A stretch of 64,000 bases of DNA from an uncultured Gammaproteobacteria bacterium (GCA_964427615.1 CAYRUR010000001.1:119303-183302), one strand, 5' to 3'; positions 323-30,332 are shown, counted from the first letter of the stretch. Made by a program: numbers and translations. Notes: generated from the sequence alone by a model not told the origin.

Positions 323-658
323 CTATGTGTTGCTGGGAGGCGTGATGTTTTCTGGGCTAACTCCTGTAAGTACCGTAATGAAGTTGAAGATGGTGAAAGA
401 AAGAAGAATAAAGACAAGTCCAATGATAGCATAAGTAAGTGTTTTTTTTGCATTAGCTATTTGTTCTTCATCTCCTCGAGATGTAATATATTTGATGCCT
501 GAGAAAATGATGAAAAAAAGAGCTACGACTGCAGATGCGCCAAGTGCGAAGTTAATGACGTTGCTCAAAACGACCCAAATACACGAAAGCGTAGGTACTC
601 CTTCTATTGTGCAGCTGTCCCAACTCAAAGAAGTAAATGAAGCAAAAAAGCTGTCCAT
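323..658 (-). CDS. Small membrane protein with conjugative-pilin (VirB2/TrbC-like) topology, paralog 1
   Basis: It shares a C-terminal block with the next three ORFs: a hydrophobic helix, a charged loop (ITSRGDEEQIANAKKTLTYAIIG), then a second hydrophobic helix. This two-helix hairpin around a charged loop is the VirB2/TrbC pilin architecture. Confidence 0.5.
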   Translation of the reverse strand: MDSFFASFTSLSWDSCTIEGVPTLSCIWVVLSNVINFALGASAVVALFFIIFSGIKYITSRGDEEQIANAKKTLTYAIIGLVFILLSFTIFNFITVLTGVSPENITPPSNT

Positions 659-715
659 ACAATACTATTTATTCTAGTGCAAAGAGAGAAAAAACACAAT
701 ATATGCTAAAAGTCA

Positions 716-1135
716 TTAAGGTCTAGGCTTAATAACGTTGGGAGGATCAGGCTCTGTAAGCGAAGGGATTGTAAGACCAGTGATTCCGTTGCCAGTTATA
801 AGTACAAGAACAAAATTTAATATGACATAGGAAAGTGCAACGAGGACTAAGCCAATAATAGCAGCGATAATAGTTCCTCGTGCTGTTTTCACTTTATCGT
901 CATCTCCTCCTGAAAGAATCCATCTAATTCCTCCATATATTAAGAAGACAAGAGCAATGAGGATAGCGAGCACAAAAGCAGCGTTAACGACAAAACTAAC
1001 CAGTTGTTGCGGGGTTACATTAGTAGGTATGCGAAAGAAAAAATTTAGATCTCTGTCTTCTTGAGCAAAAGCTTGAGGCACGAAAAGTAAAGCAAGAGCA
1101 AGGCTAGCAAAAGTGCTTGATACTATTTTTCTCAT
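716..1135 (-). CDS. Pilin-like (VirB2/TrbC-like) small membrane protein, paralog 2, with signal peptide
   Basis: N-terminal signal peptide (ALALALLFVPQAFA|QE). Conserved block GGIRWILSGGDDDKVKTARGTIIAAIIGLVLVALS flanked by two transmembrane helices. Confidence 0.55.
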   Translation of the reverse strand: MRKIVSSTFASLALALLFVPQAFAQEDRDLNFFFRIPTNVTPQQLVSFVVNAAFVLAILIALVFLIYGGIRWILSGGDDDKVKTARGTIIAAIIGLVLVALSYVILNFVLVLITGNGITGLTIPSLTEPDPPNVIKPRP

Positions 1136-1243
1136 ATCTGTATTTATTAGATCATGTTTTCACGCACTTGTCAAGGAGGAATTGCTTAATGTTATTAGTT
1201 TATAACTGAAAGAGATATAAATATTGTCTAGTATTTTGATTCA

Positions 1244-1585
1244 TCAATTGGATTGAGCACCAAGGTTTGCAACGAAATCAATTCCTAACAGTGTACCTAC
1301 AAATTGTATGATAACAGCACTCAGGAGTATTACTACAATTCCAATAATTGCATATGTCAGTGTTTTACGTGCTTTTTTGACTTTTTCCTCATCTCCTTGA
1401 GAAGTAATCCAAAGAATTCCTCCCCAGATAAGAAATATTAAAGTAAGGATAATGCCAATTACGAAAAGAATGTTTACTCCGAAAGAAACCAGATTTTCTA
1501 AGGTAACTTCAGGCACTCCAGCAGGAGCTTCTACTTCTACCTGCTTTCCTTCCAATCCAGGTACTTTTAGTGCTAGATACTTCAT
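1244..1585 (-). CDS. Pilin-like (VirB2/TrbC-like) small membrane protein, paralog 3
   Basis: Conserved block GGILWITSQGDEEKVKKARKTLTYAIIGIVVILLS between two hydrophobic helices. Confidence 0.55.
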   Translation of the reverse strand: MKYLALKVPGLEGKQVEVEAPAGVPEVTLENLVSFGVNILFVIGIILTLIFLIWGGILWITSQGDEEKVKKARKTLTYAIIGIVVILLSAVIIQFVGTLLGIDFVANLGAQSN

Positions 1586-1595
1586 ATTTTATTTA

Positions 1596-2534
1596 TTATC
1601 GTGAAAATCCAGGGAGTTGTAAAATATCAACTCCAATAATTTCTAGTATAGCAAAAGAAAGAAGAATAAAGATAAACCCAATAATAGCTGAGGTAATTGT
1701 TTCTCTTGCGCCTGCAATTTTTTCTTGATCTCCCCGAGAAGTGAGGATCTTATATCCTGCGTATATAAGGAGTACGATAAGAGAGAATGCGGCTATACCT
1801 ATAATCCAGCGGAAAAGAGAAGATATGATACTGGTAGCAGAGGAAGCATCAACTTCCCCAATAGCGGTTTTACACTTGTGGTCTTCAGTACAAGGGATAA
1901 CATTTTCTGGAACTTTTATAGTAGGGTATAGAAAGGCCGTTGATTCAGGAGGAGGGACATGAATATTCTCCTTTAGATAGGTATTGCATGTCTCTTCTGA
2001 AGTGAAAATACCTTGATTGGAACCGCTGCAAATATTCGTGCATTGGCTATTGATAATCACATAACAGGCATCTCCAGAGGGTGGTTGATTACCAGATGAA
2101 TCAACAAGACTCATAGAGCTTTTCGTAGTGCATTGTCCAATAATATGCTTGTCGTCTCCTTTATTGTAAATATAAGCAGTGAATTTATAGGCTGAAGGAG
2201 GGAGTTCCGTAGAAAACTGAAAAGTAACTGGTTTGGCATCAGTATTACTATACTCCTTTGAGGCGAGCTCTGAGTAGGCAATATTGTTGTAAGTTGCAGT
2301 GCTTCCTCCAGCTATTTTTACAATCCCTTCTTCTTTAGTAGGAAACACTCTTACCTCATATGGCTTTCCGTATTGGGCATTAAAAGATGACTCAATGGTA
2401 CACACTTCCTCTGCAAAAGTTGTTCTTGGTAGAAGGGAAAAAAAAGAAATTACAGATAGAAAAGAAAAGACAAAAAGGTAGGAGAAGACTCTCATCATAC
2501 TATCATCGTATAGCAATAAGGATGTGAAAATCAA
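1596..2534 (-). CDS. Pilin-like protein with a large Cys-rich N-terminal extracellular extension, paralog 4
   Basis: The C-terminal ~90 aa carry the same block (YKILTSRGDQEKIAGARETITSAIIGFIFILLS). It is preceded by a ~200-aa domain with at least 9 Cys and a signal-peptide-like start (MMRVFSYLFVFSFLSVISFFSLLP). The true start is probably the internal Met near 2498. Confidence 0.5.
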   Translation of the reverse strand: MIFTSLLLYDDSMMRVFSYLFVFSFLSVISFFSLLPRTTFAEEVCTIESSFNAQYGKPYEVRVFPTKEEGIVKIAGGSTATYNNIAYSELASKEYSNTDAKPVTFQFSTELPPSAYKFTAYIYNKGDDKHIIGQCTTKSSMSLVDSSGNQPPSGDACYVIINSQCTNICSGSNQGIFTSEETCNTYLKENIHVPPPESTAFLYPTIKVPENVIPCTEDHKCKTAIGEVDASSATSIISSLFRWIIGIAAFSLIVLLIYAGYKILTSRGDQEKIAGARETITSAIIGFIFILLSFAILEIIGVDILQLPGFSR

Positions 2535-15264: not shown

Positions 15265-16665
15265 ATGGATCTTGAATCAAGAACAGTTACTTATCAAATA
15301 CAAAGAAATGAAGCTTTTTATGCTGATAATTCTTCTTTAGAAGGAGAATTTCATGATTTACAAAGAGAGTGGATTCGTGAAGAGGAAGATGAATGGTACT
15401 TGTTGCCTGGAACAGGATTTAATGTGAAGCTTCAAGTTGAGTTATTACGCAAGGATCTTGAAGAAGGATTAGAAAAAGGAGAATCGTATGAGGACATTAT
15501 TGAGAAGTGGCTCCAAAAAACAGAACAGGACATTCATGGGTTTAAAATTGAGTATTTGTGTGAGGGCTTGTTATTTCCTATTATGTTGGACAAAGAAGTA
15601 GTAAACGCAGAAGAAAGAATTGTTGCGCCTTTATATGGAGGAAAACTGTTTGTAGACACAGTGAGTGAGCAAGAGCGTTTGGGAAGTGTAAAAAAAGCTA
15701 TCGTGGGTGATCCAGAAACAGGCAAAGAAGGAATAGAACACTTTTTACTCACCGCTCATCCTGGATCTGTTTCAGTTATGACCAGTCCTCCTGGTTGGAG
15801 TGGTTTTGAAGGAATTACGTACCCTGACTCTCAGACTTATATTTGGCAGATACAGGAAGACAGGTCTATTAGAGGGTTTACGGTGCGTACTGATATGGAG
15901 GTAAAAGAAAACATAAAGTTATTAGAAACACTAGGTGAAGATATGAGTGCTATGAAAGGCAAAAATGAACAAGAAAGGTTGGCAGGAATTGTCGGAACAC
16001 CGGTGTTTTTAAGGGGAAATGATGAAAAGCAGTGGAGTATCGAAGATATTGTGAATGCTATTAGATCAGTAAAACACACAAAATCAGCGTATAAAGAAAG
16101 AGGTTTTGATGAAATTTATGATCAGCTTGAAAATCCTGAGTCTTTATGGACGCTTGATGAAACAACACGTAAGCTCGTTGCAGAGTTTAGAAGATATGTG
16201 TGGGATCAAGTATATAATGGTGAAGGAGATAGAGAGAAAAACATTCAAAGAGCATTGGGAATGACTGTTCTGGAACTGGCTAAGAGAATACGTAGACCTA
16301 AGAGAGAAGAGATAGCATACGACGATGAGTGGGTAGGTGAGGAATATAGTTTAGGAGGTGGATTAGTGTCAGGAGATCGGTATCGTGATGTTTTATCTGA
16401 TGTGCAACAATTAGGAGGATGTAATGGCGGAGGAGGTGAGGGTGAAAGTATGCCTGATAGCTATATTGTTAACTCTATTACTCCTCGAATTGGTGTGAGA
16501 AATGAAGTTGATTACTCGAAAGATCCAAATTTATGTAGATGTAGTAATAGCCTTCCTCATTTTCACTGTCCTGGTAAAAAAGAAGGAAAGCCTTGTAAAG
16601 AAAAAATTATCTATGGAAAAGGAATTAAAAAGTGTCCTAGTTGTGGAGAAGGAAAAAAATGTTAA
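15265..16665 (+). CDS. Hypothetical acidic cytoplasmic protein with a Cys-rich C-terminus; putatively B12-riboswitch-controlled
   Basis: 466-aa ORF with no transmembrane segments and no recognisable enzyme motif. C-terminal CRCSNSLPHFHCPGKKEGKPCKEKIIYGKGIKKCPSCGEGKKC suggests metal binding. Confidence 0.55.
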   Translation: MDLESRTVTYQIQRNEAFYADNSSLEGEFHDLQREWIREEEDEWYLLPGTGFNVKLQVELLRKDLEEGLEKGESYEDIIEKWLQKTEQDIHGFKIEYLCEGLLFPIMLDKEVVNAEERIVAPLYGGKLFVDTVSEQERLGSVKKAIVGDPETGKEGIEHFLLTAHPGSVSVMTSPPGWSGFEGITYPDSQTYIWQIQEDRSIRGFTVRTDMEVKENIKLLETLGEDMSAMKGKNEQERLAGIVGTPVFLRGNDEKQWSIEDIVNAIRSVKHTKSAYKERGFDEIYDQLENPESLWTLDETTRKLVAEFRRYVWDQVYNGEGDREKNIQRALGMTVLELAKRIRRPKREEIAYDDEWVGEEYSLGGGLVSGDRYRDVLSDVQQLGGCNGGGGEGESMPDSYIVNSITPRIGVRNEVDYSKDPNLCRCSNSLPHFHCPGKKEGKPCKEKIIYGKGIKKCPSCGEGKKC

Positions 16666-17713: not shown

Positions 17714-18460
17714 TTACTCGTCGTTGAGTTGGATGCTGAGTAGGGCGGGATTGAGAACACCGCCGTTCTCGTTAGCTAGCTCGCCCTCGTTCCCGATTTG
17801 GGTGTCGAGGTTGTGCCAACGACGGAGCTGTTCCCCGTGTTTCCAGCAACGAGCGAGCATTGTGACAGCAGCGCCGAACATGAAGCCTGTGATGCCTTCA
17901 AGGTCCGCTTCGTGCGATGTAGCGGAAGCTACCTCTTCGAGGGTCTTCCCGTTAGATATCTCGACCTGCATGAGTCGCGCCCATCGTTGAGCGTATGTGA
18001 TAACGGCACCGCCGTAAGGATCTCGGTTGGCCAGCATGGCTTCTTCCCAAGCATCTGGGTTAGACTCCTCCATAGGAGGAGCACCTTTGAGCTTCGCCTC
18101 CAGAGCATTGCGCTTGGCTTTAGCTTGCGCCTCGTACTCAGCTTGCAGTTCCTGGCGTCTGCGCTCGTTCTTGGCTTCGACCTGGTTGTCATTCTCCTTC
18201 TCCTCGTCGGTAAGGACAAGGTTTGGGTAAGGACCGACGTTGGGGTCGATATAATGATGGAGCGCCCGATGCCAATCCCGAAAGATAAGATCAGGACTAG
18301 AGTCCTTGCGAACACTAACCCTTACCTCATTGAAGTCGAACGTAATGAGGCACCCATCTTCCTCGGCTGATAGAGCGATAGCTTCAACGATGGTATTGCG
18401 GATATGTGCTCCTGCACCAACCTCAAAGACAATTTCCTTCTTTCGCCAAAAGTTACTCAT
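17714..18460 (-). CDS. Hypothetical protein encoded on a compositionally foreign (GC-rich) segment
   Basis: 248-aa ORF in a stretch visibly far more G+C-rich than the rest of the window. GGAGG RBS 8 nt upstream of the ATG. Acidic, Ala/Glu-rich helical protein of unknown family. Spurious antisense ORFs in this stretch fit high GC. Confidence 0.55.
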   Translation of the reverse strand: MSNFWRKKEIVFEVGAGAHIRNTIVEAIALSAEEDGCLITFDFNEVRVSVRKDSSPDLIFRDWHRALHHYIDPNVGPYPNLVLTDEEKENDNQVEAKNERRRQELQAEYEAQAKAKRNALEAKLKGAPPMEESNPDAWEEAMLANRDPYGGAVITYAQRWARLMQVEISNGKTLEEVASATSHEADLEGITGFMFGAAVTMLARCWKHGEQLRRWHNLDTQIGNEGELANENGGVLNPALLSIQLNDE

Positions 18461-19073: not shown

Positions 19074-19238
19074 ATGTTTATTGTATAGTAAGTCCCACTA
19101 CACTTCCACTTCCGCTAAAGCTCCAGTGGACAAGAAAGTTTCGTGGGACACACTTCGCAGAGGCCAATTGAGGGAGTAGTGGAATATTGAGTGGCTGTGC
19201 CACACGAAGCTCTGTACTGTAAAGTACGGAGCGAAGTG

Positions 19239-19646
19239 TGGAGATGGGGAGGAGTGACCTCCCGTCCAAAAAATACAAATCACAACGTCTACAAGCATAG
19301 TCAGTTTTTAAGTGTCGTCATATCCTTATCCAACTGACAGGAAAAAATATGACCAAGGCTTTTTAAGAGCACAAAAGACAAGCCAAATCTTTTGCTCTTT
19401 CCTCACCTGGGTTATTGCCTATAAGGAAGCGATGAGGGACTCATCTTATAGACAGCTCGCATTAAGCTGCGAATGCAAAAGCGGGAGTTACCCCAACTTT
19501 TGGCATGGCATCAGCAAAAACTTGCCTGATACCGCGGCTGATGGATTTACCTTCAGCATGTATTATTTGATCCTGTTTTATGACGCATGAATCAACGTCA
19601 GCTTGCTGTTGTAAAAGTGCATTTCCTGTCGAATCAATTCATCCCC
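19239..19646 (-). ncRNA. ssrA: tmRNA (SsrA)
   Basis: Read on the minus strand, the 5' end GGGGAUGAAUUGAUUCGACAGGAAAUGC matches the tmRNA consensus GGGG.UGA.U.GGAUUCGAC.GG. The 3' end GGACGGGAGGUCACUCCUCCCCAUCUCCACA forms a T-arm and an acceptor stem. The acceptor 5'-GGGGAUG pairs with 3'-CAUCUCC, giving the G3:U70 Ala identity pair. An internal tag-like frame ends ...PAFAFAA-TAA and is followed by a hairpin. The gene abuts smpB. Confidence 0.7.
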
Positions 19647-20106
19647 GTCGTGAAAATCGCTTCAGCTCTTCTTGTGCTTCTCTGTCCAAATCTCTTTGTC
19701 TTAACTCTTTTTTGCGTTCAAATTTCTTTTTTCCTTTGACTAAGGCAATTTCAAGCTTGATTAAGACTCCCGTAGTATAAAGGGCGGTAGGGATGATTGT
19801 CAAGTTACCCTGATCCATTTTTGATTTTAGGGCAAGAATTTGTTTTTTATGCAGTAACAGTTTGCGAGTTCTGCCTTCATCATATCCATCGGTGCGAGCG
19901 AATTGGTATGGATAAATTTTAGCATTCACCAAATGTGCTTCTGAATTCATAATTCGCACATACGATGCAGAGAGATCAGCATGGCCTAGTTTTACTGCTT
20001 TTACTTCTTGTCCGGTCAGCGCAATACCTGCTTCTAATTTTTCTAAAATAGTAAATTCTGCTGGTGCTTTTTTATTTACAATTCTCATATGCCCCTTTGC
20101 TTTCAA
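19639..20106 (-). CDS. smpB: SsrA-binding protein SmpB
   Basis: 155 aa; EAGIALTGQEVKAVKLGHADLSASYVRI...LLLHKKQILALKSK is a typical SmpB core. Its last codons overlap the tmRNA 5' end. Confidence 0.9.
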   Translation of the reverse strand: MKAKGHMRIVNKKAPAEFTILEKLEAGIALTGQEVKAVKLGHADLSASYVRIMNSEAHLVNAKIYPYQFARTDGYDEGRTRKLLLHKKQILALKSKMDQGNLTIIPTALYTTGVLIKLEIALVKGKKKFERKKELRQRDLDREAQEELKRFSRRG

Positions 20107-20368: not shown

Positions 20369-20380
20369 TTGATACATACG

Positions 20381-20776
20381 ATGCCAAACCGTAGAAATGA
20401 GGAAAACATACCTGTTGCCAAGAAGCTGAGAAGGAACCAAACTAACTCTGAAAAATTATTATGGTCTTATTTAAGAAATAGGAATATTGATGGGGTAAAA
20501 TTTAGACGACAGTATCCAATAGGAGTGTATGTTCTTGATTTTGTAAGCATTGAAAAGAAACTTGTGGTAGAAATTGATGGAGGACAACACAATGAACAAG
20601 ATCATAAGGAGTATGATGATATACGTTCATCTTGGTTACAACAAGAAGGGTTTCGAGTATTGAGGTTTTGGAATAATGAAATTTTAGAAAATAGTGAAGG
20701 AGTGGTTTTCAAAATAAGAGAAGAATTAGGTAAACCCTCATCCCTACCTTCTCCCTTAAAAAGGGAGAAGGAGTAA
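20381..20776 (+). CDS. DUF559 (Vsr/restriction-endonuclease-like fold) domain protein
   Basis: LRRNQTNSEKLLWSYLRNRNIDGVKFRRQYPIGVYVLDFVSIEKKLVVEIDGGQHN...FRVLRFWNNEI is the characteristic DUF559 pattern. An alternative TTG start lies at 20369. Confidence 0.8.
   Translation: MPNRRNEENIPVAKKLRRNQTNSEKLLWSYLRNRNIDGVKFRRQYPIGVYVLDFVSIEKKLVVEIDGGQHNEQDHKEYDDIRSSWLQQEGFRVLRFWNNEILENSEGVVFKIREELGKPSSLPSPLKREKE
20735..20771 (+). repeat. Right imperfect terminal inverted repeat (lies inside the last 13 codons of the DUF559 ORF)
   Basis: See left repeat. The sequence ccctcatccctaccttctcccttaaaaagggagaagg encodes PSSLPSPLKREKE. Confidence 0.6.
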
Positions 20777-20858: not shown

Positions 20859-22712
20859 TTAGAGTGAAAAAGTATAAATTTTGGAGTTGCTTACAACATA
20901 TAACGTGTGATTTGGTTCATCTACTGCAAATGAGGTGGCATTTTTAAAAATATCTGAAGTATATTGTTTGGCAAACGAACCACTTTTTTGGATAGATACC
21001 ATTCGTTTTCCAGAGGGGTCAAGTACATAAAGATTTGCATAATCAACATCGGTGTAAATACTGCTTCCTTTGCCAATAGAGGTGGGAAGCCCTTGTATAG
21101 AGAAAGCATCTTTGCTGCCTCGTGTATATTTTTGAATACTTCCATCATCTAAAAGAACCCAGACAGAGGCATCAATACTAAATGATACGGGATTTTTAGA
21201 AAAATCAGGTTCTTGGCTAAAATAATCAGTGTCATTATATGCTTCAGGAATAAATTTTTTAATAGTATTTTGGCGCGTATCCAGCACGTAAATGTTATTT
21301 CCAAAGGTACTAATACTTTTTGGAGCTTGTAGGTCTTCTATAATTGTTTCGTTTTCTTTTTCATTCTTTTCTTGTTTGATAACAGAGTCATTAGTAAGCA
21401 TGTAAAAATAGTCTTCATCTGCACTAATATCTACCACCCGTGTTGATTCACCTTCAAAAAATTGTTCTATTTCTCCGCTTTTAGAAAGTAAAACAGCAGA
21501 AGTATTATTTGTTCCTGTGGCAATAATACTGCCCCCTTTAATAGTAATATGCCCAACTTGTTTTATTTTTTCCTGAGATGGATCAAAAAAGAGTTTTTCT
21601 CCTCCCAGTTGTTCTCCTCCTCCTAGTTTTTGAATCTCAGCATTTACTTTTTCAAGGAGGGTATCTAATTGTTCTCGTTCAGGAGTGCCTTGAGGGAATT
21701 TGTCCTGTTCTGCAAGGAGTATTTTTTTGGCTTCATACAGTGTTTCAAGAGCAAGTGGTTTATTTAAAGATGCAAGCGCTATTGCTTCATCCAACTGTTG
21801 CTGGGTAGGTGCAAGAATATGGGCAAACTCTTCTTGTAACTGTTTTTTTTCTTTATTCATGTTTTCATGTATAATTCCGCCTATTAATATACTTAAAAGA
21901 ACAGCGATACCAATACCAATAAGCACATTTTTTTTCAAAAGCACCTCTTTTTTTGGTATATGAAGGTTTTTGATAAAAGAAGAAAGAGTAGCAGGATGAG
22001 GTATGCGCTCTTTAAGGGTGGTGATAAAAGATGGTTTTAGGGCTTCTGGTTTTTCTTGTTTTTGCTCTTCGTCTTTTTCTACTTCTTCGAAAGTTTCCTC
22101 ATCTGCTAAATAGCTTGCATCGTGGCTTTGAATTTGCAGGACTATAGCTGCTTCTGTGCCTTGTGGTTCTGTACTGATAAGCGGAGCAAGTGTTTCTGCA
22201 ATATCCAGGATGTTGATAGTTTTGGTAAAGGTTTGATAGAGGGAGGGATCTATCTTCTGGGCAAAGCCTGGCGTTTGCAGAAAAAGCATATCGTTGTGAC
22301 GTAGCTCTCCTGAAAAGCCAGTAATGCTTTGTGGTTCTGCTTCTGCAATAATTCCAATAGTCTCATCTCTTTTTAAGAGTACTTTTCCGGCTGATGAGAT
22401 AATAATATAAGCAACTCCTTCAATGATCGTTACCAAAACAAGTGAGTGCTCTATTTCAGCAGGGATAATAGATACAGTATTTTCTACTGCTTGTTTTATG
22501 GTAGATAGATTTTTTTCGTCAATTGCAAAGTATTCTCGTTGTAGTTTTTCAAGGACTTCTTTTCCTAAAGTAGTGGGTTGGATATCTGATTCACCCTGTT
22601 TTTTAAGGCTGACTACAACAAACACATGTAACGTGGAAAAAGCCTGCGCCCAGGTTTTTTCTGTTGTATTTGAAACGAGTTTTTCGTGAACAATAGTATA
22701 GTTTTGGTTCAT
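20859..22712 (-). CDS. Hypothetical bitopic membrane protein with a C-terminal beta-propeller-like repeat region
   Basis: One central transmembrane helix (VLIGIGIAVLLSILIGGII), a coiled-coil segment, and repeated YVLD / YMLTND / YVVSN beta-strand motifs. Unknown family. Confidence 0.5.
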   Translation of the reverse strand: MNQNYTIVHEKLVSNTTEKTWAQAFSTLHVFVVVSLKKQGESDIQPTTLGKEVLEKLQREYFAIDEKNLSTIKQAVENTVSIIPAEIEHSLVLVTIIEGVAYIIISSAGKVLLKRDETIGIIAEAEPQSITGFSGELRHNDMLFLQTPGFAQKIDPSLYQTFTKTINILDIAETLAPLISTEPQGTEAAIVLQIQSHDASYLADEETFEEVEKDEEQKQEKPEALKPSFITTLKERIPHPATLSSFIKNLHIPKKEVLLKKNVLIGIGIAVLLSILIGGIIHENMNKEKKQLQEEFAHILAPTQQQLDEAIALASLNKPLALETLYEAKKILLAEQDKFPQGTPEREQLDTLLEKVNAEIQKLGGGEQLGGEKLFFDPSQEKIKQVGHITIKGGSIIATGTNNTSAVLLSKSGEIEQFFEGESTRVVDISADEDYFYMLTNDSVIKQEKNEKENETIIEDLQAPKSISTFGNNIYVLDTRQNTIKKFIPEAYNDTDYFSQEPDFSKNPVSFSIDASVWVLLDDGSIQKYTRGSKDAFSIQGLPTSIGKGSSIYTDVDYANLYVLDPSGKRMVSIQKSGSFAKQYTSDIFKNATSFAVDEPNHTLYVVSNSKIYTFSL

Positions 22713-22948
22713 AGAAATAGCACAATACCAAATAAAAGTAGTATAGAAAGTATGGCGTGGACATGGGCAAAGGTAGCAAAGATAGGAGAAAAAGAAACTT
22801 GGTCAATGATGCGCGAAAGCGTACGGATTTGATTTGCTAAAATCAGAGCAAATAGAGTGTAGAGAAGCAGTAATACAATAAGCGCAATCTTAAATAAGAA
22901 ATCTTGGTTGAGTGAAAGGGAAAGTAATTGAAAGAATTCTTCGTTCAT
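22709..22948 (-). CDS. Small two-helix membrane protein
   Basis: 79 aa, hydrophobic. Overlaps the downstream gene by 4 nt, suggesting an operon. Confidence 0.35.
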   Translation of the reverse strand: MNEEFFQLLSLSLNQDFLFKIALIVLLLLYTLFALILANQIRTLSRIIDQVSFSPIFATFAHVHAILSILLLFGIVLFL

Positions 22949-22957
22949 ATATACTAA

Positions 22958-23617
22958 TTATATTATAAGGTTTGTGATAATTCTGGCAACTCGAGCAGGT
23001 TGCGGAATTCTATCAAATTCAACATTTACATGCGGCCCAGCGGTTTGGATAGAGACTGAGCCTAGTCCAAAGATAGCATGTAAGCCACCCACTTGTTTGT
23101 AACTAACGTCTTCTATTAGATTCAGTTTTGTCTCTGCAATATCACGTACTAAAATCCCATTCAAGTCTACATCAATAGCACGTTTGTTAGTAATAAGTCC
23201 TACATGAAAGTACCAGAGGGTAAAATTAAGTAGGATAAATCCAGATACGATCAAATAATAAAAAAGTAAAAAGGCAGTAGTCGTAGTAGAGGAAGGGTTA
23301 AAGAATGGAAAGACAGAAAGAAGAGAGGGTAAAAAGAAAGGAACCAAAACCATCACAAATGCACCCAAAATCCAGGTGAGGTTAGTAATAAATCCTCTTC
23401 TGATAAGCAAGATTATCTCTTCATCTTCCTCCTGATATTGGTAATGGACTCCTTTGGGACGGGCAACTAAAGAGCTGTAAAAATGGGGAGAGTGGGGAGT
23501 TGTGATATCAAGATCTTCTACCTCAGTAGTTTTCTTTTTTCCAGAAGTTGTAGAATGAGATTTGGTATCTGATAAATGAAATTCTCCTTTCAGTGGTGAG
23601 TGCGTATCTTTTTCCAT
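22958..23617 (-). CDS. Membrane protein with a bacterial PH (bPH_2/DUF304, YdbT-like) domain
   Basis: Two adjacent transmembrane helices followed by TNKRAIDVDLNGILVRDIAETKLNLIEDVSYKQVGGLHAIFGLGSVSIQTAG, a typical bPH_2 fold pattern. Confidence 0.55.
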   Translation of the reverse strand: MEKDTHSPLKGEFHLSDTKSHSTTSGKKKTTEVEDLDITTPHSPHFYSSLVARPKGVHYQYQEEDEEIILLIRRGFITNLTWILGAFVMVLVPFFLPSLLSVFPFFNPSSTTTTAFLLFYYLIVSGFILLNFTLWYFHVGLITNKRAIDVDLNGILVRDIAETKLNLIEDVSYKQVGGLHAIFGLGSVSIQTAGPHVNVEFDRIPQPARVARIITNLII

Positions 23618-23634
23618 ACAACGTATAAATGTGA

Positions 23635-25365
23635 TTATTTGTGTTCTATATTAAAGAATGCCCAGCCACCTTCACAGGTGCTTTGTGGGATACGAATATA
23701 TCCAGGTGCTCTAAGGCAAACTGCCCTTTTGAATTCGAGACCAGTCATGCTGATATTATTGATTATAACCCGGTTTGTAGTATTATTTCCTTGTTCGATT
23801 TTCACACTTGTTGCTGAGCTTATCCCTCCATGAGTGCTTACGAGATTTCTTAACTCTTCCATGCTATACGGGTTTTTTTCTGGCCAGCAGGAAGTAGTAA
23901 CTGGAGCAATTCTTGAAGTATCAATACCTCCTACCTTGAGAGCAATTGCAGCATTAGCAATATCTGCCATTTCTTCAGGAGAAAGCCATGGATTTGTACG
24001 CCCACAGGTATCACCATACTTGCTTGTACCATTTCTCCACCAAGCTTTATATCCCCATGGAGATCCTGCTGTTTTTTCATACGTCTTATCCATGAAATTT
24101 TCTCCGCGTTGACCATCTGTAGTATCCCAGCCTGATGTATTTAGCCAACCTCCTGTTATGGCTGAATATTGTCTATTATTTATACCTCCTGTCATAATCA
24201 TTCCCTCAGTTTCTTTTACCGCTTGTTTCCATGTGTCAGTATTTTCTTCAAGTTTTACTTCTTGACAGTCTTGATTTGGGCAGACAGTAGATTTACCGTA
24301 TGCATAACTCCTTGCAGCAATTGCTTGCACCTTCAATACTTCTAATGGCCATGATCCAGGCATTTCGTAAATATGTTTTAAATAGTCTTCAAGTTGATAT
24401 GATACGTTGTTGAAATTTTGTCCGTATGTATTTGTTCCATTAACTGTAATAGTTTGATTAGTATCTACCTTGGTAATTTCTACACCAGGATAATAGTGTT
24501 TTAATATTTGCTCTGCTGATTGTCCTTGTTGGACTCTTCCGAGTGCTCCGTATTGGCTCATACCATTTCTATGTGTATATGCGCCTATAGAGAATATTGC
24601 AAAATATCCACTAGGGGCAGTATCTTGAAAACCTTTCAGAGAAGATAGGTATTCATCAGCTAATTCACCACTGCCTATACTAATAGTAAAGTTCCCACTT
24701 CTAGCAGACATGATTTGTTTTTGTTTTGCACTCAATTCTGCAATTTGACTGGAGACTGAGGCTTGATAATTTTTTGCACCAGCTACAACTTCTTCAATCT
24801 TTTGTCTTTCTGCAGCAAGTCTTGTTTTTACACTGCTGAGTCTTTTTTCCTCGCTTTCCAATGTTTTTTTTCGTTGTTCTAAGTCTGCAATTTTGATAGC
24901 TGTGTTGGTGATAATTGCTTTATTTATATCTGCTTTTTGTTTTTGAAATGTTATGGCCTGTATTAGCTCTGAGGCACTGGCACTTGAGAGAAAGATAAGA
25001 ATGGGTGGAAAACTTGCGTTTTGCATGTAGTACTCTCTGCTTGCTCTACTGAAAAGATCTCTTTGTTTTTCAAAATCTTTATATCCTTCTTCGATGTCTT
25101 TTTTCTTACGTACGATATCATTTTCTATAAATGCAATTTGGTTTTCAATGCCTGCGATTTGTTTCTTCATACTTGCGATTTGTGACTCAAGTGGAGTAGT
25201 GGCTTTTTTTGATGCCTCCAGTGCTTGTTGTAGCTCGCTTAATTTCCGATTAATATCATCCAATTCATCAGAGTAAGCAGAAGGCACAGAAGTAGTAAGA
25301 GTGAAAATGACAATAGCAAAGAGTCCACAGGAGAGCAGGAGCAGCTTTTTCATAGGTAGCAACAT
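23635..25365 (-). CDS. Secreted coiled-coil protein with a SpoIID/LytB-like domain (putative peptidoglycan-remodelling lytic factor)
   Basis: Signal peptide; a ~230-aa heptad-rich coiled coil; then GYFAIFSIGAYTHRNGMSQYGALGRVQQGQSAEQILKHYYPGVEI, which matches the SpoIID motif (G.SQ.GA...A..G..Y..IL..YY.G). Confidence 0.6.
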   Translation of the reverse strand: MLLPMKKLLLLSCGLFAIVIFTLTTSVPSAYSDELDDINRKLSELQQALEASKKATTPLESQIASMKKQIAGIENQIAFIENDIVRKKKDIEEGYKDFEKQRDLFSRASREYYMQNASFPPILIFLSSASASELIQAITFQKQKADINKAIITNTAIKIADLEQRKKTLESEEKRLSSVKTRLAAERQKIEEVVAGAKNYQASVSSQIAELSAKQKQIMSARSGNFTISIGSGELADEYLSSLKGFQDTAPSGYFAIFSIGAYTHRNGMSQYGALGRVQQGQSAEQILKHYYPGVEITKVDTNQTITVNGTNTYGQNFNNVSYQLEDYLKHIYEMPGSWPLEVLKVQAIAARSYAYGKSTVCPNQDCQEVKLEENTDTWKQAVKETEGMIMTGGINNRQYSAITGGWLNTSGWDTTDGQRGENFMDKTYEKTAGSPWGYKAWWRNGTSKYGDTCGRTNPWLSPEEMADIANAAIALKVGGIDTSRIAPVTTSCWPEKNPYSMEELRNLVSTHGGISSATSVKIEQGNNTTNRVIINNISMTGLEFKRAVCLRAPGYIRIPQSTCEGGWAFFNIEHK

Positions 25366-25397
25366 TATAGCAGAAGGAGAAAATTATGCCAAAAGAT

Positions 25398-26105
25398 TTA
25401 CTTCTGTATTTCTTTTACGTTTTTATATACCAGGTACATAAAAATAATACCCAGAGGAGTGATAATCAGACTTACGAGGGAATCCAAAATAGTGAGAACA
25501 ATCATATCTCTAATACCAAAGATAGTAGATAGAATACCAAGTACTAAATAAGTCCCTATGAAGAAGAAAACAAGAAAAACTATTTTGCCAAAGACTGCAA
25601 ACCAAAGACCGGTAACATACTGTTTGCTTTTCTTAAACGATTCAACAATACCTGTATTTTCAAATACTAAAGTGTATGTTGCCAGACTGAACCACACCAA
25701 CAAAATGATGCCCGGAATAATCAACAGTAAAAATCCTCCAAAGACAGCAAGTCCAGCAAGCAGCAGGACAGCAAAGTAAGGAAGTATTTTATTGGGAGTT
25801 TTTTTATAAGCTTCAGAAATGGTAAGTGTTTTGGATGGTATAGCATAGAGCGTAGCAATGCTAGAGGCAATGGTAGCTACCAAATACAAAAGACTCAATG
25901 GCAGAATAAGGAAATCAATAGAGTCTATGGTATTTGTCATATTATTTCTGTCCGGGGTTATCAAAGCGATAATGATATTTAAAATAACGGGGATTGCAGT
26001 AATACCAATAAAAAGTTGATATTTTTCTTTGAAAATGTTTACTGTTTTATCAAAAAGGTCAAATGAACTTGGAAGTTGTTTGGAATGAGAATTGTCAGAT
26101 GCCAC
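25398..26105 (-). CDS. Small polytopic membrane protein of unknown function
   Basis: At least 5 transmembrane helices. The track ORF extends to 26219, but its first ~38 codons merely read through the tRNA gene. The real start is probably a GTG/TTG or Met nearer 26100 or below. Confidence 0.45.
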   Translation of the reverse strand: MASDNSHSKQLPSSFDLFDKTVNIFKEKYQLFIGITAIPVILNIIIALITPDRNNMTNTIDSIDFLILPLSLLYLVATIASSIATLYAIPSKTLTISEAYKKTPNKILPYFAVLLLAGLAVFGGFLLLIIPGIILLVWFSLATYTLVFENTGIVESFKKSKQYVTGLWFAVFGKIVFLVFFFIGTYLVLGILSTIFGIRDMIVLTILDSLVSLIITPLGIIFMYLVYKNVKEIQK

Positions 26106-26142
26106 AACTTTAGTAAACCAGGAATTACCGAGAGTGTCAAGT

Positions 26143-26215
26143 GTGCGCCCGGATGGATTCGAACCATCGACATCTACTTTATAAGAGTAGCGCTCTGCCC
26201 CTGAGCTACGGGCGC
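26143..26215 (-). tRNA. tRNA with anticodon UAU (Ile, AUA-decoding), CCA not encoded
   Basis: Minus strand GCGCCCG-UA-GCUC-AGGGGCA-GAGC-G-CUACU-CUUAUAA-AGUAG-AUGUC-GAUGG-UUCGAAU-CCAUC-CGGGCGC-A. Perfect 7-bp acceptor, U8, GG in the D-loop, U33 and A37, and a TUCGAAU T-loop. Confidence 0.6.
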
Positions 26216-26258
26216 CCAACGTGGGGATATTATATCAAATAACGTAGGCAAAAAAACG

Positions 26259-28658
26259 TTATGATCTTTTCATGCCTGGTGGAAGTTCTCCTGAATCATT
26301 ATCTTCTAAGGCTTCAAACATGCGGGAGCGTCTTGCAATATCTGCTCCGACTAGCTCTTTTGGTTTGCCATATTTAAGGCGGGAGAGTTCCCTGACTAGT
26401 TCTGCAATGCGTGGATTATCAAGTTTTTTCTCTTCTTCCATGTTTCTTGTGAAATCAACAGAAAATGGTAGAGCTGGTTCACCATCAATCAATGTTCTCA
26501 TATAGGCATGGTATCGTTCTATATTGATAAGGTCTGCTTCTGAAAAAGTAGGCTGGAATTCATGCTGTAAGTAGTTGGCATCAGTTACTCCTACGCGGAA
26601 GGAAACGATTGTTCCTACATTACCAAAGATAGCATTTTTTACTTCTTCTTCCATTTGTCCGATAAATTGGTTGGCTACAATCAGATTAAGACGGTATTTT
26701 CTAGCCTCAGAAAGAATTTGGGCAAAGTCAGGGGTGGCAAAGTTTTGGAACTCATCTACATATAGATAAAAATCTTTTCTTTGGCTCATAGGTATATCTT
26801 GTCGAGACATAGCAGCAATTAAAATACGAGGTACTAAAATAAGTCCTAAGAAGCTGGAGTTTTCTTCTCCAATTTTTCCTTTGGCAAGATTGACTAACAG
26901 AATTTTTTGCTGATCCATGACTTCACGGAAATTAAATGCACTTTGGCCTTGTCCTATGATATTACGCATCATGGTATTGGTAACAAATCGTCCGAATTTG
27001 GAAGTAATGTAATCCAGTGTTTCTGATTTATGGAAGTCGTTCGTTTGGGCAATTTGATCTGTCCAGTAACGCCTGATAATTGGGTCTTGAACTTTTGGCA
27101 ACAGTTCTTGTACAAAAGAAGAGTCAGTGAGGGCACGCATTACTTCTACCAAAGTATTCCCCTTTTCTGCCATAACGGTTAACATTGCGTTGCGTACTGC
27201 GTGTTCAAATCGAGGACCCACGATACCGGTCTTATGAGGATCAAAAAGCTTGTACATCAAGCCAATAATAGAGGATACGACAAAGTGTTTTTGCTCTTCA
27301 TCTGTTGCCTCAAGCATATTCAGTCCCATAGGTCTTTGCGTATCAGAAGGGTCAAAAAGAATAACATCCTCAGCTCTTTCCGGTGGAATACGCAGGAGCA
27401 CGTCATCTATCAAGTCTCCGTGTGGGTCAATAGCAGCTATTCCTTTGCCATTTTGGATATCCTGCAGGATCATAGATTTTAACAGTTCTGATTTTCCGAC
27501 ACCTGTTTTTCCAATAATATACATATGTCTTCTCCTGTCATCATCACTCATGTAAATTTGCCTTTCCATGCCTCTATAAGTGCTTTTTCCAATATAGAGT
27601 CCTGAAGTAGGGATGTTAGCAGGTGCAGGTGCACTTCTGGCTGCCAGCCAGTGAATCTGAGAGTTTTCAACGCTTTTATTAGGCAAATGGAAGAGGGTGG
27701 CAAGCTCTTCAGTATTCAGTACGGAACCAGCTCCTACCAGTGGAAGATAGCGGTAAATAAAATCAATCATAAATAACCCTTTGAAAAAACGGATTTTATC
27801 TCTCTCAAATGAGTTATAAGAAGCAAATTGGGCAAAGGCACTTTCAATGTTGGATAAGTGCATATCAGCAGCATCTTTGGTAGAAGAGGAGACTACAATA
27901 CGAATATAGGTGTTAAATCCAGGTTTGGTGATTTTCTGCTCAATTGCTTCTAGCTCTTTTTGATCTGTTGAGTATTTGGCAGTTTCAGGGTCCGCCTCTT
28001 TTTTCTTCGTACTTGAGATGTAGGCTCTCCCTGCTTTTCTCCAGCCAGAACCAGCAGGTGTTATGACGAATTGAATAACAGCTCCTTCTCCTTCCTGCAT
28101 CTTACTTAAGGTGCTGGTAATCATAGAAAGAGGGTCTACTGCTAGATCTTTGTAAGTCTTCAAAGGTTTATAAGAGGCTTCTTCTAATTTCAAACCAGCA
28201 TAGGCTACAGCCCCATTCTCACTAAAAATATTATATTCTTCAACTTCTTTGATAAGCGCATCAGGGTAGGAACCATGAATTTGTTTTTCTACCATGTCCT
28301 TGATATGGCGTGGGACACTAACATGAAAGCGAATATCACCAGGTCGTGCTACTATCTCAAAAGCAATACTGTCAGGAATTTTGAAAAAGGCAAGCCTTCC
28401 TTTTGCGGTCTTTAAAGAGGTAAGACCCGCAAATAGCTGCTCTGCTGCATCAATTTTGATTTCATTTTCTCGGGGCAAGGCGATTTCTAAGAGAACTGAG
28501 TTGAGTGATTTTTTATGCCTTGCATTATTTTTGCGCCAAAGCCCAAATAAAAAAGCAAGACCTACCAGAGAAAACACAACTAAAGAAGAGATAAAAATCC
28601 CGAGTAAAAAGAGTAGTAAAAAGTCGATTATGCCGGTTCCAAACGCATCAATTTGCAT
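26259..28658 (-). CDS. Type IV secretion/conjugation-type ATPase (VirD4/TraG coupling-protein-like or VirB4-like) with an N-terminal transmembrane anchor
   Basis: N-terminal transmembrane helices. Walker A IIGKTGVGKS is followed ~25 aa later by AAIDPHGDL, the DP[KHN]GD motif of TrwB/VirD4/VirB4 ATPases. Walker B FYLYVDEFQNF. Length 799 aa. Confidence 0.65.
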   Translation of the reverse strand: MQIDAFGTGIIDFLLLFLLGIFISSLVVFSLVGLAFLFGLWRKNNARHKKSLNSVLLEIALPRENEIKIDAAEQLFAGLTSLKTAKGRLAFFKIPDSIAFEIVARPGDIRFHVSVPRHIKDMVEKQIHGSYPDALIKEVEEYNIFSENGAVAYAGLKLEEASYKPLKTYKDLAVDPLSMITSTLSKMQEGEGAVIQFVITPAGSGWRKAGRAYISSTKKKEADPETAKYSTDQKELEAIEQKITKPGFNTYIRIVVSSSTKDAADMHLSNIESAFAQFASYNSFERDKIRFFKGLFMIDFIYRYLPLVGAGSVLNTEELATLFHLPNKSVENSQIHWLAARSAPAPANIPTSGLYIGKSTYRGMERQIYMSDDDRRRHMYIIGKTGVGKSELLKSMILQDIQNGKGIAAIDPHGDLIDDVLLRIPPERAEDVILFDPSDTQRPMGLNMLEATDEEQKHFVVSSIIGLMYKLFDPHKTGIVGPRFEHAVRNAMLTVMAEKGNTLVEVMRALTDSSFVQELLPKVQDPIIRRYWTDQIAQTNDFHKSETLDYITSKFGRFVTNTMMRNIIGQGQSAFNFREVMDQQKILLVNLAKGKIGEENSSFLGLILVPRILIAAMSRQDIPMSQRKDFYLYVDEFQNFATPDFAQILSEARKYRLNLIVANQFIGQMEEEVKNAIFGNVGTIVSFRVGVTDANYLQHEFQPTFSEADLINIERYHAYMRTLIDGEPALPFSVDFTRNMEEEKKLDNPRIAELVRELSRLKYGKPKELVGADIARRSRMFEALEDNDSGELPPGMKRS

Positions 28659-29037
28659 GAATAATTCCTCCTCTCATTTCTTGAGCACGTTCATCAGTTA
28701 TTTTTATCCATTCTCCACTTTCGTTGGTGTTGAATATACGTAAAAGGCTAACTGCTTCCATGAAAAGTCCACCAAGAGTATGTCTGGCAGGAGCCATTGT
28801 TTGAGCTTTTCGTTTTACCTGAATTATTTGTGGGTTTTTAATAATTTCTTGAGGTAGTACTGCAGGTCCAGAATGTGTTAAAGGCGTTTTGCCACCTGTT
28901 TCTGCAAAGTGTTTGTTTATCACTTCTTGACCGGCTTCTTCATCAGGAAATATGCCTGCTTTTTTTAATTCAGGATCAACAGGTAGAACCTCCGTAACAG
29001 GAGCTATATATTGAGTATTTTCAACTTCATTATGCAT
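28648..29037 (-). CDS. Hypothetical protein, probably co-transcribed with the ATPase (11-nt overlap)
   Basis: 129-aa ORF with no motif recognised. Confidence 0.4.
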   Translation of the reverse strand: MHNEVENTQYIAPVTEVLPVDPELKKAGIFPDEEAGQEVINKHFAETGGKTPLTHSGPAVLPQEIIKNPQIIQVKRKAQTMAPARHTLGGLFMEAVSLLRIFNTNESGEWIKITDERAQEMRGGIIHAN

Positions 29038-29238: not shown

Positions 29239-29328
29239 GGAGGAGTCGCATAGCTGGTCCATTGCGGGGGTTTGCTAAACCCCTGAGCCTTTTGGCTCGC
29301 GCAGGTTCGAATCCTGTCTCCTCCGCCA
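29239..29328 (+). tRNA. tRNA-Ser (anticodon GCU) with long variable arm, CCA encoded
   Basis: GGAGGAG...anticodon stem GGGGU/ACCCC with loop UUGCUAA...variable arm UGAGCCUUUUGGCUCGC...GCAGG-UUCGAAU-CCUGU-CUCCUCC-G-CCA. Confidence 0.8.
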
Positions 29329-30218: not shown

Positions 30219-30305
30219 GGAGAGGTGCTGGAGTGGACGATCAGGAAGGTCTTGAAAACCTTTGTGGGTGCAAGCTCACCGTGGGTTCGAATCCCACCCT
30301 CTCCG
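30219..30305 (+). tRNA. tRNA-Ser (anticodon UGA) with long variable arm
   Basis: GGAGAGG...anticodon stem AAGGU/ACCUU with loop CUUGAAA...variable arm UGUGGGUGCAAGCUCACCG...GUGGG-UUCGAAU-CCCAC-CCUCUCC-G. Confidence 0.8.
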
Positions 30306-30332
30306 CATAGGTGATATAGGTAAACGCCTTAT

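Follow-up and report, generated by a model that had tools for sequence, protein, structure and literature searches.

The co-directional gene run described here probably reflects the lineage-specific juxtaposition of two independent conserved units, A and B, rather than one secretion module. The window, meaning the whole stretch of 64,000 nucleotides that was analysed, is a Patescibacteria (Levybacteria-like) chromosome, and all the genes that the initial annotation had listed in the run (for a bPH_2 membrane protein, a SpoIID protein, a further membrane protein, a tRNA, an ATPase and a small overlapping ORF) were confirmed, positions included, all on the minus strand. The run extends past position 22958 with a DUF5657 gene followed by a 617-aa ORF (Table 1). 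The ORFs are long, match known families, have homologues in the thousands and are thus not chance ORFs. Unit A comprises the 129-aa ORF, the 799-aa ATPase and tRNA-Ile(UAU), and unit B the coiled-coil SpoIID protein, the bPH_2 protein, DUF5657 and the 617-aa protein. A rearrangement in the window's Levybacteria lineage would have shifted the pilin array about 20 kb away, leaving unit A upstream of unit B, and a YciC-like gene would have been inserted between the two. The case is a warning that, in compact genomes, a co-directional run of genes need not be an operon.

Table 1. Features of the co-directional run and its context, in coordinates of the window
Feature	Position	Strand	Evidence
129-aa ORF, unit A, probable fast-evolving ATPase partner	28648..29037	-	ORF call; 11-nt overlap with ATPase start
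799-aa membrane-anchored ATPase, unit A	26259..28658	-	Motifs, Pfam profiles, model
tRNA-Ile, anticodon UAU, unit A; 43 nt past ATPase stop	26143..26215	-	ARAGORN, Rfam
YciC/UPF0259-like polytopic membrane protein, lineage-specific insert, start uncertain	25398..26105	-	ORF call, profile
Promoter-like site immediately before SpoIID gene	25364..25392	-	TTGGCA-17-TATAAT with TG, 11/12 matches
576-aa coiled-coil and SpoIID/LytB-type protein, secreted or membrane-anchored, unit B	23635..25365	-	Profiles, AlphaFold2, Foldseek
bPH_2 membrane protein, unit B	22958..23617	-	Pfam bPH_2 30.1 bits (cut-off 22)
DUF5657 small membrane protein, unit B	22709..22948	-	DUF5657 43.6 bits
617-aa protein, no assigned family, unit B	20859..22712	-	ORF call; weak NCBIfam CIS12 match
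SmpB and tmRNA, context	19236..20106	-	ORF call, Rfam
VirB2-like T4SS_pilin gene array, context	323..2534	-	Pfam PF18895, three genes confirmed

How often do the two units occur together? Of 80 GTDB loci anchored on the ATPase, only six have a SpoIID homologue no more than 10 kb from it, three on the downstream side (L003-L005) and three on the upstream side (L031, L036 and L037); of 29 metagenome loci anchored on the SpoIID gene, one has the ATPase at up to that distance. These counts run against the earlier proposal that ATPase, SpoIID and membrane proteins form a single secretion-like module, with an ATPase-energised channel for which the SpoIID protein clears a path through the wall, a proposal that we now regard as very improbable. 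Such a module would account for the tight packing and common direction of the genes in the window, for the same adjacency in the close Levybacteria L003-L005, L083 and L085, and for a permuted adjacency in the Dojkabacteria-type L036 and L037, where an 11-kb stretch holds pilins, unit B and unit A, all in the same direction. Adjacency in this subset of Levybacteria and in Dojkabacteria-type loci is indeed commoner than chance in genomes of about 1 Mb, and may thus reflect a loose functional link. A single module sits poorly, however, with the variable gene between the units (YciC-like in the window, an HTH protein in L085, nothing in L083), with the promoter-like site that precedes the SpoIID gene, and with the housekeeping genes that adjoin the ATPase in most lineages (RNR/NrdR, an XerC-like recombinase, FtsB-like, DnaX, GyrB and CysRS, recognised by eye from cluster sequences and not profile-tested). 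The channel components VirB6, VirB3 and VirB8 were not seen beside either unit.

The ATPase belongs to the VirD4/VirB4/HerA branch. The initial label of VirD4/VirB4-type stands at this level, and the profile searches lean towards its VirD4/TrwB/TraD side; a VirB4-specific profile was matched neither by the window ATPase nor among the matches of 23 diverse family members. The motifs include a Walker A (GKTGVGKS, 383-390), DPHGD (411-415) and a Walker B (YVDEFQN, 633-639), and the Pfam profiles TrwB_AAD_bind (32.2 bits, cut-off 20.5), DUF87 (31.9 bits), TraG-D_C (28.5, cut-off 22) and T4SS-DNA_transf (20.2, cut-off 20.1) all score over cut-off. Among the 23 family members, TrwB_AAD_bind and TraG-D_C each match 21, and T4SS-DNA_transf 14. 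The FtsK_SpoIIIE profile did not reach its threshold, and the NCBIfam TraD and VirD4 equivalog models stayed far from their cut-offs (TraD 53.6 against 366, CD1115 38.3 against 250). Among PDB sequences, TrwB and DotL match best and have the DPxGD, DE, RK and Q..Q motifs in common with the ATPase. By fold, the ATPase is equally like TrwB, VirB4 and HerA, a comparison that does not separate T4CPs from VirB4 or HerA; the top full-length Foldseek E-value (4e-16) is for VirB4/TrwK, yet with a full-length TM-score of only ~0.3. On sequence grounds, we favour a coupling protein (VirD4/TrwB/TraD).

In the structural model, an N-terminal helix (4-52) is followed by a DUF8128 alpha/beta domain (54-330) and by a TrwB/VirD4-like ATPase domain (354-735) that carries an all-alpha insert at 454-582 in its RecA-like nucleotide-binding domain; the two-helix membrane anchor of T4CPs is absent from the model, its place being taken by one continuous helix and then the 280-residue alpha/beta domain. 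With over 7,400 homologues, 6,303 cluster representatives at E <= 1e-30 and ~70% identity across Levybacteria, the protein is a chromosomal orphan of the T4CP lineage, nearly universal in Patescibacteria. The family has already been reported as T4CP homologues encoded far from virB4, only 148 of 5,713 lying near it, in a survey that treats Patescibacteria VirB4 and T4CP homologues as separate sets (PMC12102498). The single helix would anchor the ATPase in the membrane, the DUF8128 domain and ATPase ring being cytoplasmic, and the ring would spend ATP on delivering its substrate, whether protein or DNA, to a channel in the membrane, most likely that of the dispersed Patescibacteria T4SS/VirB2-pilus machinery encoded elsewhere. 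These orphan T4CP homologues are now better described, with a domain layout, a conserved small partner gene and a tRNA linkage.

Across the 80 loci, the genes that stay adjacent to the ATPase are limited to the small upstream ORF and, where the locus is of Microgenomatia type, the tRNA. In 55 of 74 related loci the gene directly preceding the ATPase is a small co-directional ORF, and these ORFs form several lineage-specific families. The 129-aa ORF of the window had no family match in profile searches, and its comparison with the small upstream ORFs of other loci (E 9.6) did not demonstrate homology; it is a probable fast-evolving partner of the ATPase and, probably coupled to it in translation, would serve it as an adaptor or regulator. 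The tRNA-Ile(UAU), whose anticodon loop CTTATAA is readable in the sequence, was found by ARAGORN (anticodon TAT) and Rfam (72.4 bits) inside the run, between the membrane protein and the ATPase, as first described. Of 72 loci, 23 have it downstream of the ATPase at no more than 4.2 kb, most of them 17-103 nt past the ATPase stop; these 23 all belong to the Microgenomatia or Dojkabacteria type. In the window, profile scans showed no VirB4, VirB6 or relaxase beside the ATPase, and no T4SS parts appeared among the inspected recurrent neighbour clusters of the 80 loci. The YciC-like ORF (UPF0259/YciC, 31.8 bits against a cut-off of 31.4), as called at 25398-26219 (273 aa), runs into the tRNA, so that its real start lies downstream, probably at a GTG at 26105 (~235 aa); no homologue occupies the equivalent position in any other locus compared.

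Turning to unit B, the SpoIID/LytB-like C-terminal domain proposed for the 576-aa protein (572 aa, starting at M5, in the NCBI version) was upheld by Pfam SpoIID (51.3 bits, cut-off 23) and TIGR02669 SpoIID_LytB (84.3, cut-off 83.3), and spans about 239-572. Its YEMPG motif has a Glu that does not vary among 52 homologues and that falls on the EM motif when aligned with the solved SpoIID structures 4rwr and 5i1t. The segments of the domain appear to be permuted, query 258-300 corresponding to 4rwr 278-320 and query 322-359 to 4rwr 65-104, and the same order was obtained with the TIGR02870 and TIGR02669 profiles, whose middle was unmatched. The sporulation SpoIID equivalog TIGR02870 was not reached (53.8 bits against a cut-off of 234.75) and no sporulation partners were seen near the gene; only SpoIID-type profiles match the protein, and no SLT/lysozyme-like or CHAP domain was found in it. 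A coiled-coil hairpin with helices at 28-113 and 127-218 precedes the domain (AlphaFold2, overall pLDDT 83.6, hairpin ~80) and weakly resembles those of EnvC and RipA (EnvC sequence E 8e-4; EnvC and RipA by Foldseek); with such weak E-values, these coiled-coil matches may stem from composition alone. Homologues number more than 1,400, at about 50% identity over the full length, and relatives are labelled 'CwlO-like' by JGI. The enzyme would cut peptidoglycan glycan strands, the hairpin would let a membrane partner control it, as happens in EnvC, CwlO or RipA, and its task would be to open the wall for a pilus or T4SS apparatus.

The genes that follow are largely conserved with it. The bPH_2 gene follows the SpoIID gene in 16 of 26 metagenome loci and all three Levybacteria loci, the DUF5657 gene is conserved within the block in related loci, and the gene for the 617-aa protein, which has an apparent central hydrophobic segment and a C-terminal region (423-571) that only weakly matches NCBIfam CIS12, is kept after DUF5657 in 19 of 26. 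SmpB lies downstream of unit B in 15 of 24 loci and in 3/3 Levybacteria loci, and SmpB and tmRNA come after the unit in most related genomes. The promoter-like site before the SpoIID gene is near consensus and suggestive, the total of such sites in the region not being above shuffled expectation, and unit B, an envelope block, is probably under a promoter of its own.

What does this block accompany, if not the ATPase? Examination of gene order near pilin arrays placed the SpoIID block directly and divergently beside VirB2-like arrays: a pilin gene lies within 3 kb upstream of the SpoIID gene, and divergent from it, in 21 of 24 related contigs, and is its immediate neighbour in 22 of the 28 loci with an upstream pilin (median gap ~58 nt). 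Ten of ten sampled pilin neighbours match Pfam T4SS_pilin, seven above cut-off, and the divergent pairing persists at 28-48% protein identity. In the window this adjacency is broken, the pilin array (three genes confirmed by Pfam PF18895, with a 113-aa ORF at 1244-1585 as a putative further member) lying 18-23 kb from the SpoIID gene. SmpB, tmRNA and a cluster of tRNA-Ser/Arg genes are conserved in the same neighbourhood as the pair, and the adjacency could be inherited gene order only, as Levybacteria tolerate the separation. A large secreted protein whose lysozyme-like domain is of SLT_3 type is also encoded in some related pilin islands.

In the one genetically tractable Patescibacteria lineage, the T4SS and its VirB2-like pilin array are essential for life on the host, and the same survey found almost no VirB1 homologues near Patescibacteria T4SS, leaving other glycosidases possible (PMC12102498). 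The analogy with VirB1 drawn in the initial annotation is plausible, from gene order, when the SpoIID protein is tied to the pilins, and gains no support for a tie to this ATPase. For the VirB1 role in a group that holds a large share of bacterial diversity, the conserved SpoIID-type enzyme encoded beside pilin arrays offers a concrete candidate that can be tested. A bolder reading, to which we give little probability, is that in Microgenomatia-type Patescibacteria the permuted SpoIID-type glycan-cleaving enzyme on its EnvC-like stalk, transcribed back to back with pilin arrays, fills the vacant VirB1 role in the VirB2-like pilus/T4SS system, and that the dispersed DUF8128 ATPase with its small partner is the coupling motor.

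Each half of the two-unit reading has a competitor. Unit B may instead be a general unit of cell-wall growth or division, controlled, like EnvC, PcsB, CwlO or RipA, by a membrane complex, its position beside pilins being inherited order without shared function; this is a genuine, if lesser, possibility. FtsEX-controlled hydrolases have this architecture of an N-terminal helical hairpin and a wall enzyme at the C-terminus, and the EnvC and RipA matches, the 'CwlO-like' names and the full-length conservation of the SpoIID family point the same way, as do the SmpB, tmRNA and tRNA cluster common to the conserved neighbourhood and the retention of the block without adjacent pilins in Levybacteria. 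The near gap-free divergent pairing with pilins (21/24) is nevertheless tighter than the link to SmpB (15/24), the coiled-coil matches are weak and possibly compositional, and no division genes were seen beside the block. Among the scanned window ORFs, FtsE and FtsX had no match.

Similarly, the ATPase may have been exapted as a HerA/FtsK-like motor, one that handles DNA at the membrane for instance, and be a T4CP only by descent, which we hold to be possible but less likely. It has replication or recombination neighbours in several classes, including DnaX, GyrB, an XerC-like recombinase and RNR (by eye), no relaxase or T4SS gene nearby, and few relatives near virB4; in S. epibionticum, the T4CP homologue is not essential while other T4SS genes are, which fits an exapted role, and exaptation of T4CP homologues is not ruled out by the authors (PMC12102498). 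On the other hand, the T4CP-specific profiles TrwB_AAD_bind, TraG-D_C and T4SS-DNA_transf match most family members, T4CP genes are often distant from virB4 in any case (PMC12102498), and the fusion partners of longer family members give no hint of a DNA enzyme.

Compared with known systems, the ATPase shares with the T4CPs (TrwB of R388, VirD4, TraD, Cagbeta, DotL) an ATPase fold with an all-alpha insertion, a Walker A followed by DPxGD, a Walker B DE, RK and Q..Q, and T4CP Pfam profiles above cut-off. It differs in having one anchoring helix instead of two and an extra 280-residue DUF8128 domain with no known counterpart, and in being encoded by a highly conserved chromosomal gene, not a mobile-element gene, that is not beside a T4SS or relaxase. 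It resembles VirB4/TrwK in its length (about 800 aa) and in its N-terminal domain followed by a C-terminal ATPase, but lacks a VirB4-specific match and VirB3, VirB6 or VirB8 neighbours. The SpoIID protein is like the wall hydrolases VirB1, TrsG and PrgK in being a predicted glycan-cleaving enzyme beside VirB2-like pilin genes in most relatives, although it is of SpoIID/LytB type instead of SLT/lysozyme-like or CHAP, and the window copy adjoins no pilin or T4SS gene. With EnvC, PcsB, CwlO and RipA/RipC it shares a helical hairpin N-terminal to a wall-enzyme domain, which is of LytM, CHAP or NlpC/P60 type in those proteins and SpoIID-type here, with bPH_2 and DUF5657 downstream. Finally, SpoIID of Bacillus and Clostridioides, a lytic transglycosylase of engulfment (4rwr, 5i1t), has both the EM...LKxQAxAAR motif with its catalytic Glu and the GMSQYGA motif that are conserved here, whereas in the present protein the order of the segments appears permuted and a 200-residue coiled-coil hairpin precedes the domain.

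All the genes on which the initial annotation had based a single secretion-like module at 22958-29037 are found at their positions on the minus strand, and the co-directional run extends further, through a DUF5657 gene and a 617-aa ORF, with SmpB and tmRNA beyond (see table). The called YciC-like ORF opens with 25 codons that are the tRNA-Ile itself, and its true start is probably further downstream, at the GTG at 26105. A promoter-like site (11 of 12 positions, plus a TG extension) lies immediately 5' of the SpoIID gene, and is a hint only, because the total of such sites in the region is not above the shuffled expectation.

Positions and strands of the gene run and of other features in the window
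Feature	Positions	Strand	Remarks
129-aa ORF	28648-29037	minus	11-nt overlap with the next gene (ATPase)
799-aa ATPase	26259-28658	minus	GKTGVGKS, DPHGD 21 residues on, then YVDEFQN
tRNA-Ile, anticodon TAT	26143-26215	minus	ARAGORN; Rfam 72.4 bits; anticodon loop read directly
YciC-like ORF, as called	25398-26219	minus	UPF0259/YciC match, 31.8 bits (barely over cut-off)
576-aa SpoIID protein	23635-25365	minus	
bPH_2 protein	22958-23617	minus	
DUF5657 gene	22709-22948	minus	
617-aa ORF	20859-22712	minus	
135-aa ORF	20369-20776	plus	DUF559-like by reading of the sequence
248-aa ORF	17714-18460	minus	Pfam Tad4, E 8.8e-28
466-aa ORF	15265-16665		no Pfam match
Cobalamin riboswitch	14975-15112	plus	Rfam 36 bits, cut-off 31.5
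Cobalamin adenosyltransferase gene	14445-15017		
608-aa ORF	7571-9397		
VirB2-like pilin array	323-2534		
tRNA-Ser	29239-29328		
LAGLIDADG-type ORF, 257 aa	29374-30147	minus	free-standing
tRNA-Ser	30219-30306		

The window (G+C about 37%) is chromosomal and belongs to a Patescibacteria bacterium near Levybacteria: the closest homologues are labelled Candidatus Levybacteria by the source databases, and the window carries housekeeping genes (NrdR with RNR, GroEL, LepA, MurJ, SmpB with tmRNA) as well as families common in the phylum (T4SS_pilin, DUF5657, DUF5667). Among the scanned ORFs of the window, none matched VirB4, VirB6 or a relaxase. Other features include a LAGLIDADG-type ORF lying between two tRNA-Ser genes just upstream of the run, a cobalamin riboswitch that overlaps the end of a cobalamin adenosyltransferase gene and is followed downstream by the 466-aa ORF, and a strong match to Tad4 (type I Thoeris inhibitor), an anti-defence family for which a bacterial chromosome is an unexpected place.

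The surroundings of the SpoIID gene were compared in three Levybacteria contigs and in a wider sample of metagenome contigs bearing full-length homologues (28-48% identity), with home-made HMMs for the pilin, bPH_2, DUF5657 and the 617-aa protein. The three Levybacteria contigs all have the order SpoIID, bPH_2, a protein of about 600 aa and SmpB, and a DUF5657 gene was called in two of them. Upstream of SpoIID, two of the three also have the tRNA, the ATPase and the small ORF; the gene between these and SpoIID is a different one or is missing. In the window, the usual order from the 617-aa gene to SmpB is split by the 135-aa ORF on the opposite strand, for which none of the compared loci has a homologue in that place. 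In the wider sample, a T4SS_pilin gene lies within 3 kb upstream of SpoIID in 23 of 31 loci with at least 1 kb of flank, and in 21 of 24 with at least 3 kb, always on the opposite strand; the initial annotation had proposed a check of the gene order near pilin-like arrays. Of the 28 loci with an upstream pilin, 22 have it directly next to SpoIID (median gap about 58 nt), the arrays comprise up to ten genes, and all ten of the pilin neighbours sampled match Pfam PF18895, seven of them over the cut-off. Downstream, among loci with enough flank, follow bPH_2 (16/26), DUF5657 (13/26), a 617-aa homologue (19/26) and SmpB (15/24). Large secreted Cys-rich proteins (750-970 aa) are encoded past the pilin arrays in these metagenome contigs (L086-L144), the 821-aa ORF beyond the array of L089 has a C-terminal SLT_3 lysozyme-like domain, and homologues of the 608-aa ORF of the window also occur in the islands.

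For the ATPase, 80 loci were taken from species-representative genomes across the phylum, chosen as the 80 best matches per scan rather than at random; several of the records have titles with plainly unreliable taxon labels. In all loci compared, ORFs were called by a simple longest-ORF method; those around the ATPase were then clustered, and neighbour clusters were identified by reading representative sequences by eye, without profile searches. The neighbours vary by lineage: many Levybacteria and Woesebacteria have NrdR, RNR and a PduO-type gene upstream and a XerC-like recombinase and an FtsB-like gene downstream, Paceibacteria-type loci have CysRS upstream and a 212-aa protein and DnaX downstream, and Saccharimonadia-type loci have GyrB nearby. 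In 55 of 74 loci, the gene directly upstream is a small co-directional ORF, which often overlaps the ATPase gene or lies at most 20 nt from it. These ORFs form several lineage-specific families, none with a Pfam family, whose N-termini are disordered and whose C-termini form a basic amphipathic helix. In Microgenomatia (L003, L008-L013, L015, L016, L029), they share the motifs ExxAGV and LP(I/L)(T/S) and a C-terminal RWLAEW..RLKQ amphipathic helix; other classes have different families in the same place. An HMM built from the Microgenomatia copies strongly links 10 loci and reaches the 129-aa ORF of the window only at E 9.6, so that homology was not retained for this ORF and positional conservation alone can be claimed. 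A tRNA-Ile(UAU) lies within 4.2 kb downstream of the ATPase in 23 of 72 loci, all Microgenomatia- or Dojkabacteria-type, and in most of them 17-103 nt past the ATPase stop. The tRNA was noted beside the ATPase in L003-L037, L083 and L085, and is conserved across Microgenomatia-type genomes. In bacteria without tilS, such as Mycoplasma mobile, AUA is decoded by tRNA-Ile(UAU) (PMC3575796).

Seen from either side, the reading of the run as one secretion module is not borne out. A SpoIID homologue occurs within 10 kb of the ATPase in only six of the 80 loci (downstream in L003-L005, upstream in L031, L036 and L037), and a DUF8128 ATPase within 10 kb of SpoIID in one of 29 loci with enough flank. 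Related lineages usually have the SpoIID gene back to back with a pilin array and followed by bPH_2, DUF5657, the protein of about 600 aa and then SmpB/tmRNA. The sampled Levybacteria (the window, L003-L005 and L083-L085) have no adjoining pilin array; in the window, the array is 18-23 kb away, the ATPase unit lies upstream of the SpoIID block, and a lineage-specific YciC-like gene stands between them. This layout and its break in Levybacteria lead to the conclusion that the run consists of two units: the 129-aa ORF, the ATPase and the tRNA (unit A), and the SpoIID block (unit B).

The ATPase has more than 7,400 scored homologues (about 70% identity across Levybacteria); a library clustered at 50% identity contains 6,303 representatives with E <= 1e-30. 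Its precomputed domains are, from the N-terminus, PF26449 (DUF8128), TrwB_AAD_bind, DUF87 and TraG-D_C, and its AlphaFold2 model is confident (pLDDT 90.5, pTM 0.82), with a long N-terminal helix (4-52), an alpha/beta domain (54-330) and an ATPase domain (354-735) holding an all-alpha insert (454-582). The initial assignment to a VirD4/VirB4 type is supported. Sequence profiles favour a coupling protein: the ATPase is over the cut-off for Pfam TrwB_AAD_bind, TraG-D_C and T4SS-DNA_transf, which match 21, 21 and 14 of 23 diverse family members, and TrwB and DotL are its only PDB sequence matches at E < 0.001, the DPxGD, DE, RK and Q..Q motifs being aligned. Fold comparison, on the other hand, does not discriminate, with figures of 23.2 for HerA, 23.1 for both TrwB and the VirB4 C-terminal domain, 21.6 for Cagbeta, 21.1 for DotL, 17.6 for TcpA and 17.1 for FtsK; full-length TrwK/VirB4 ranks first in Foldseek (E 4e-16), yet with TM-scores near 0.3. 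Longer family members are fused to TPR repeats or unannotated extensions only, which give no clue to function. A T4SS_pilin match in one of the 23 members (E 1.8e-5) was not reproduced by the home-made pilin HMM, and may be a transmembrane-helix match.

Two profiles confirm the SpoIID domain, Pfam SpoIID at 51.3 bits and TIGR02669 at 84.3 (cut-off 83.3). The family has at least 1,416 members at about 50% identity over full length, some of which are named 'SpoIID/LytB domain' or 'CwlO-like' by some sources. The Glu of the YEMPG motif lines up with the EM motif in solved structures of SpoIID, and does not vary among 52 homologues. Relative to SpoIID, the segments of the domain come in reverse order, in the protein as in the consensus of these 52: residues 258-300 (GAYTHRNGMSQYGA...HYYPGVEI) correspond to the C-terminal end of SpoIID (4rwr 278-320; TIGR02870 positions 296-337 of 338), and residues 322-408 to its N-terminal start (4rwr 65-104; TIGR02669 positions 6-104). 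This looks like a circular permutation common to the whole family, as drawn from sequence alignments, since a fold search with the model (pLDDT 83.6; signal or anchor helix, long helices 28-113 and 127-218, globular domain) was dominated by the coiled coil and returned no SpoIID structure among the top 50. Re-scanning an artificially re-permuted domain gave near-equal scores (86.1 and 89.3 bits), which is uninformative because HMMER sums the stretches.

What could the two units do? Unit A most likely provides a membrane-anchored, coupling-type ATPase ring that would pass substrate to a dispersed T4SS/pilus machinery, its small co-translated protein being a putative adaptor or regulator. The profile matches argue for this role; a role unrelated to secretion is a serious rival, possible if rather unlikely. 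For unit B, the back-to-back arrangement points most likely to controlled glycan cleavage, by which the wall would be opened to the pilus apparatus. Nearly as likely, tentative as it is, would be a general role in growth or division, by analogy with EnvC and CwlO. EnvC (FtsEX-EnvC complex) and the RipA N-terminal domain match the helical part of the SpoIID protein weakly, and the composition of coiled coils can by itself give such matches. In the pilin/SpoIID islands, neither an ATPase HMM at relaxed stringency nor a scan for Walker A turned up a VirB4-like ATPase within 10 kb. Conserved gene order in such small genomes takes in unrelated housekeeping genes too.

The SpoIID family is already annotated in databases; the searchable literature yielded nothing on SpoIID in the Candidate Phyla Radiation, on its pairing with VirB2-like pilin arrays and permuted domain order, or on DUF8128, which has a Pfam entry. 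Published work already describes the ATPase family and its location apart from virB4: 5,713 VirD4-type T4CP homologues were counted in 2,918 Patescibacteria genomes, about two per genome, just 148 of them near virB4, and the S. epibionticum copy is not essential, exaptation remaining possible according to the authors (PMC12102498). A second ATPase paralogue (858-1073 aa), a few genes from the first in L038, L052 and L062, agrees with that number per genome. Beside its pilin arrays, the SpoIID-type enzyme is a candidate for the role filled by VirB1.
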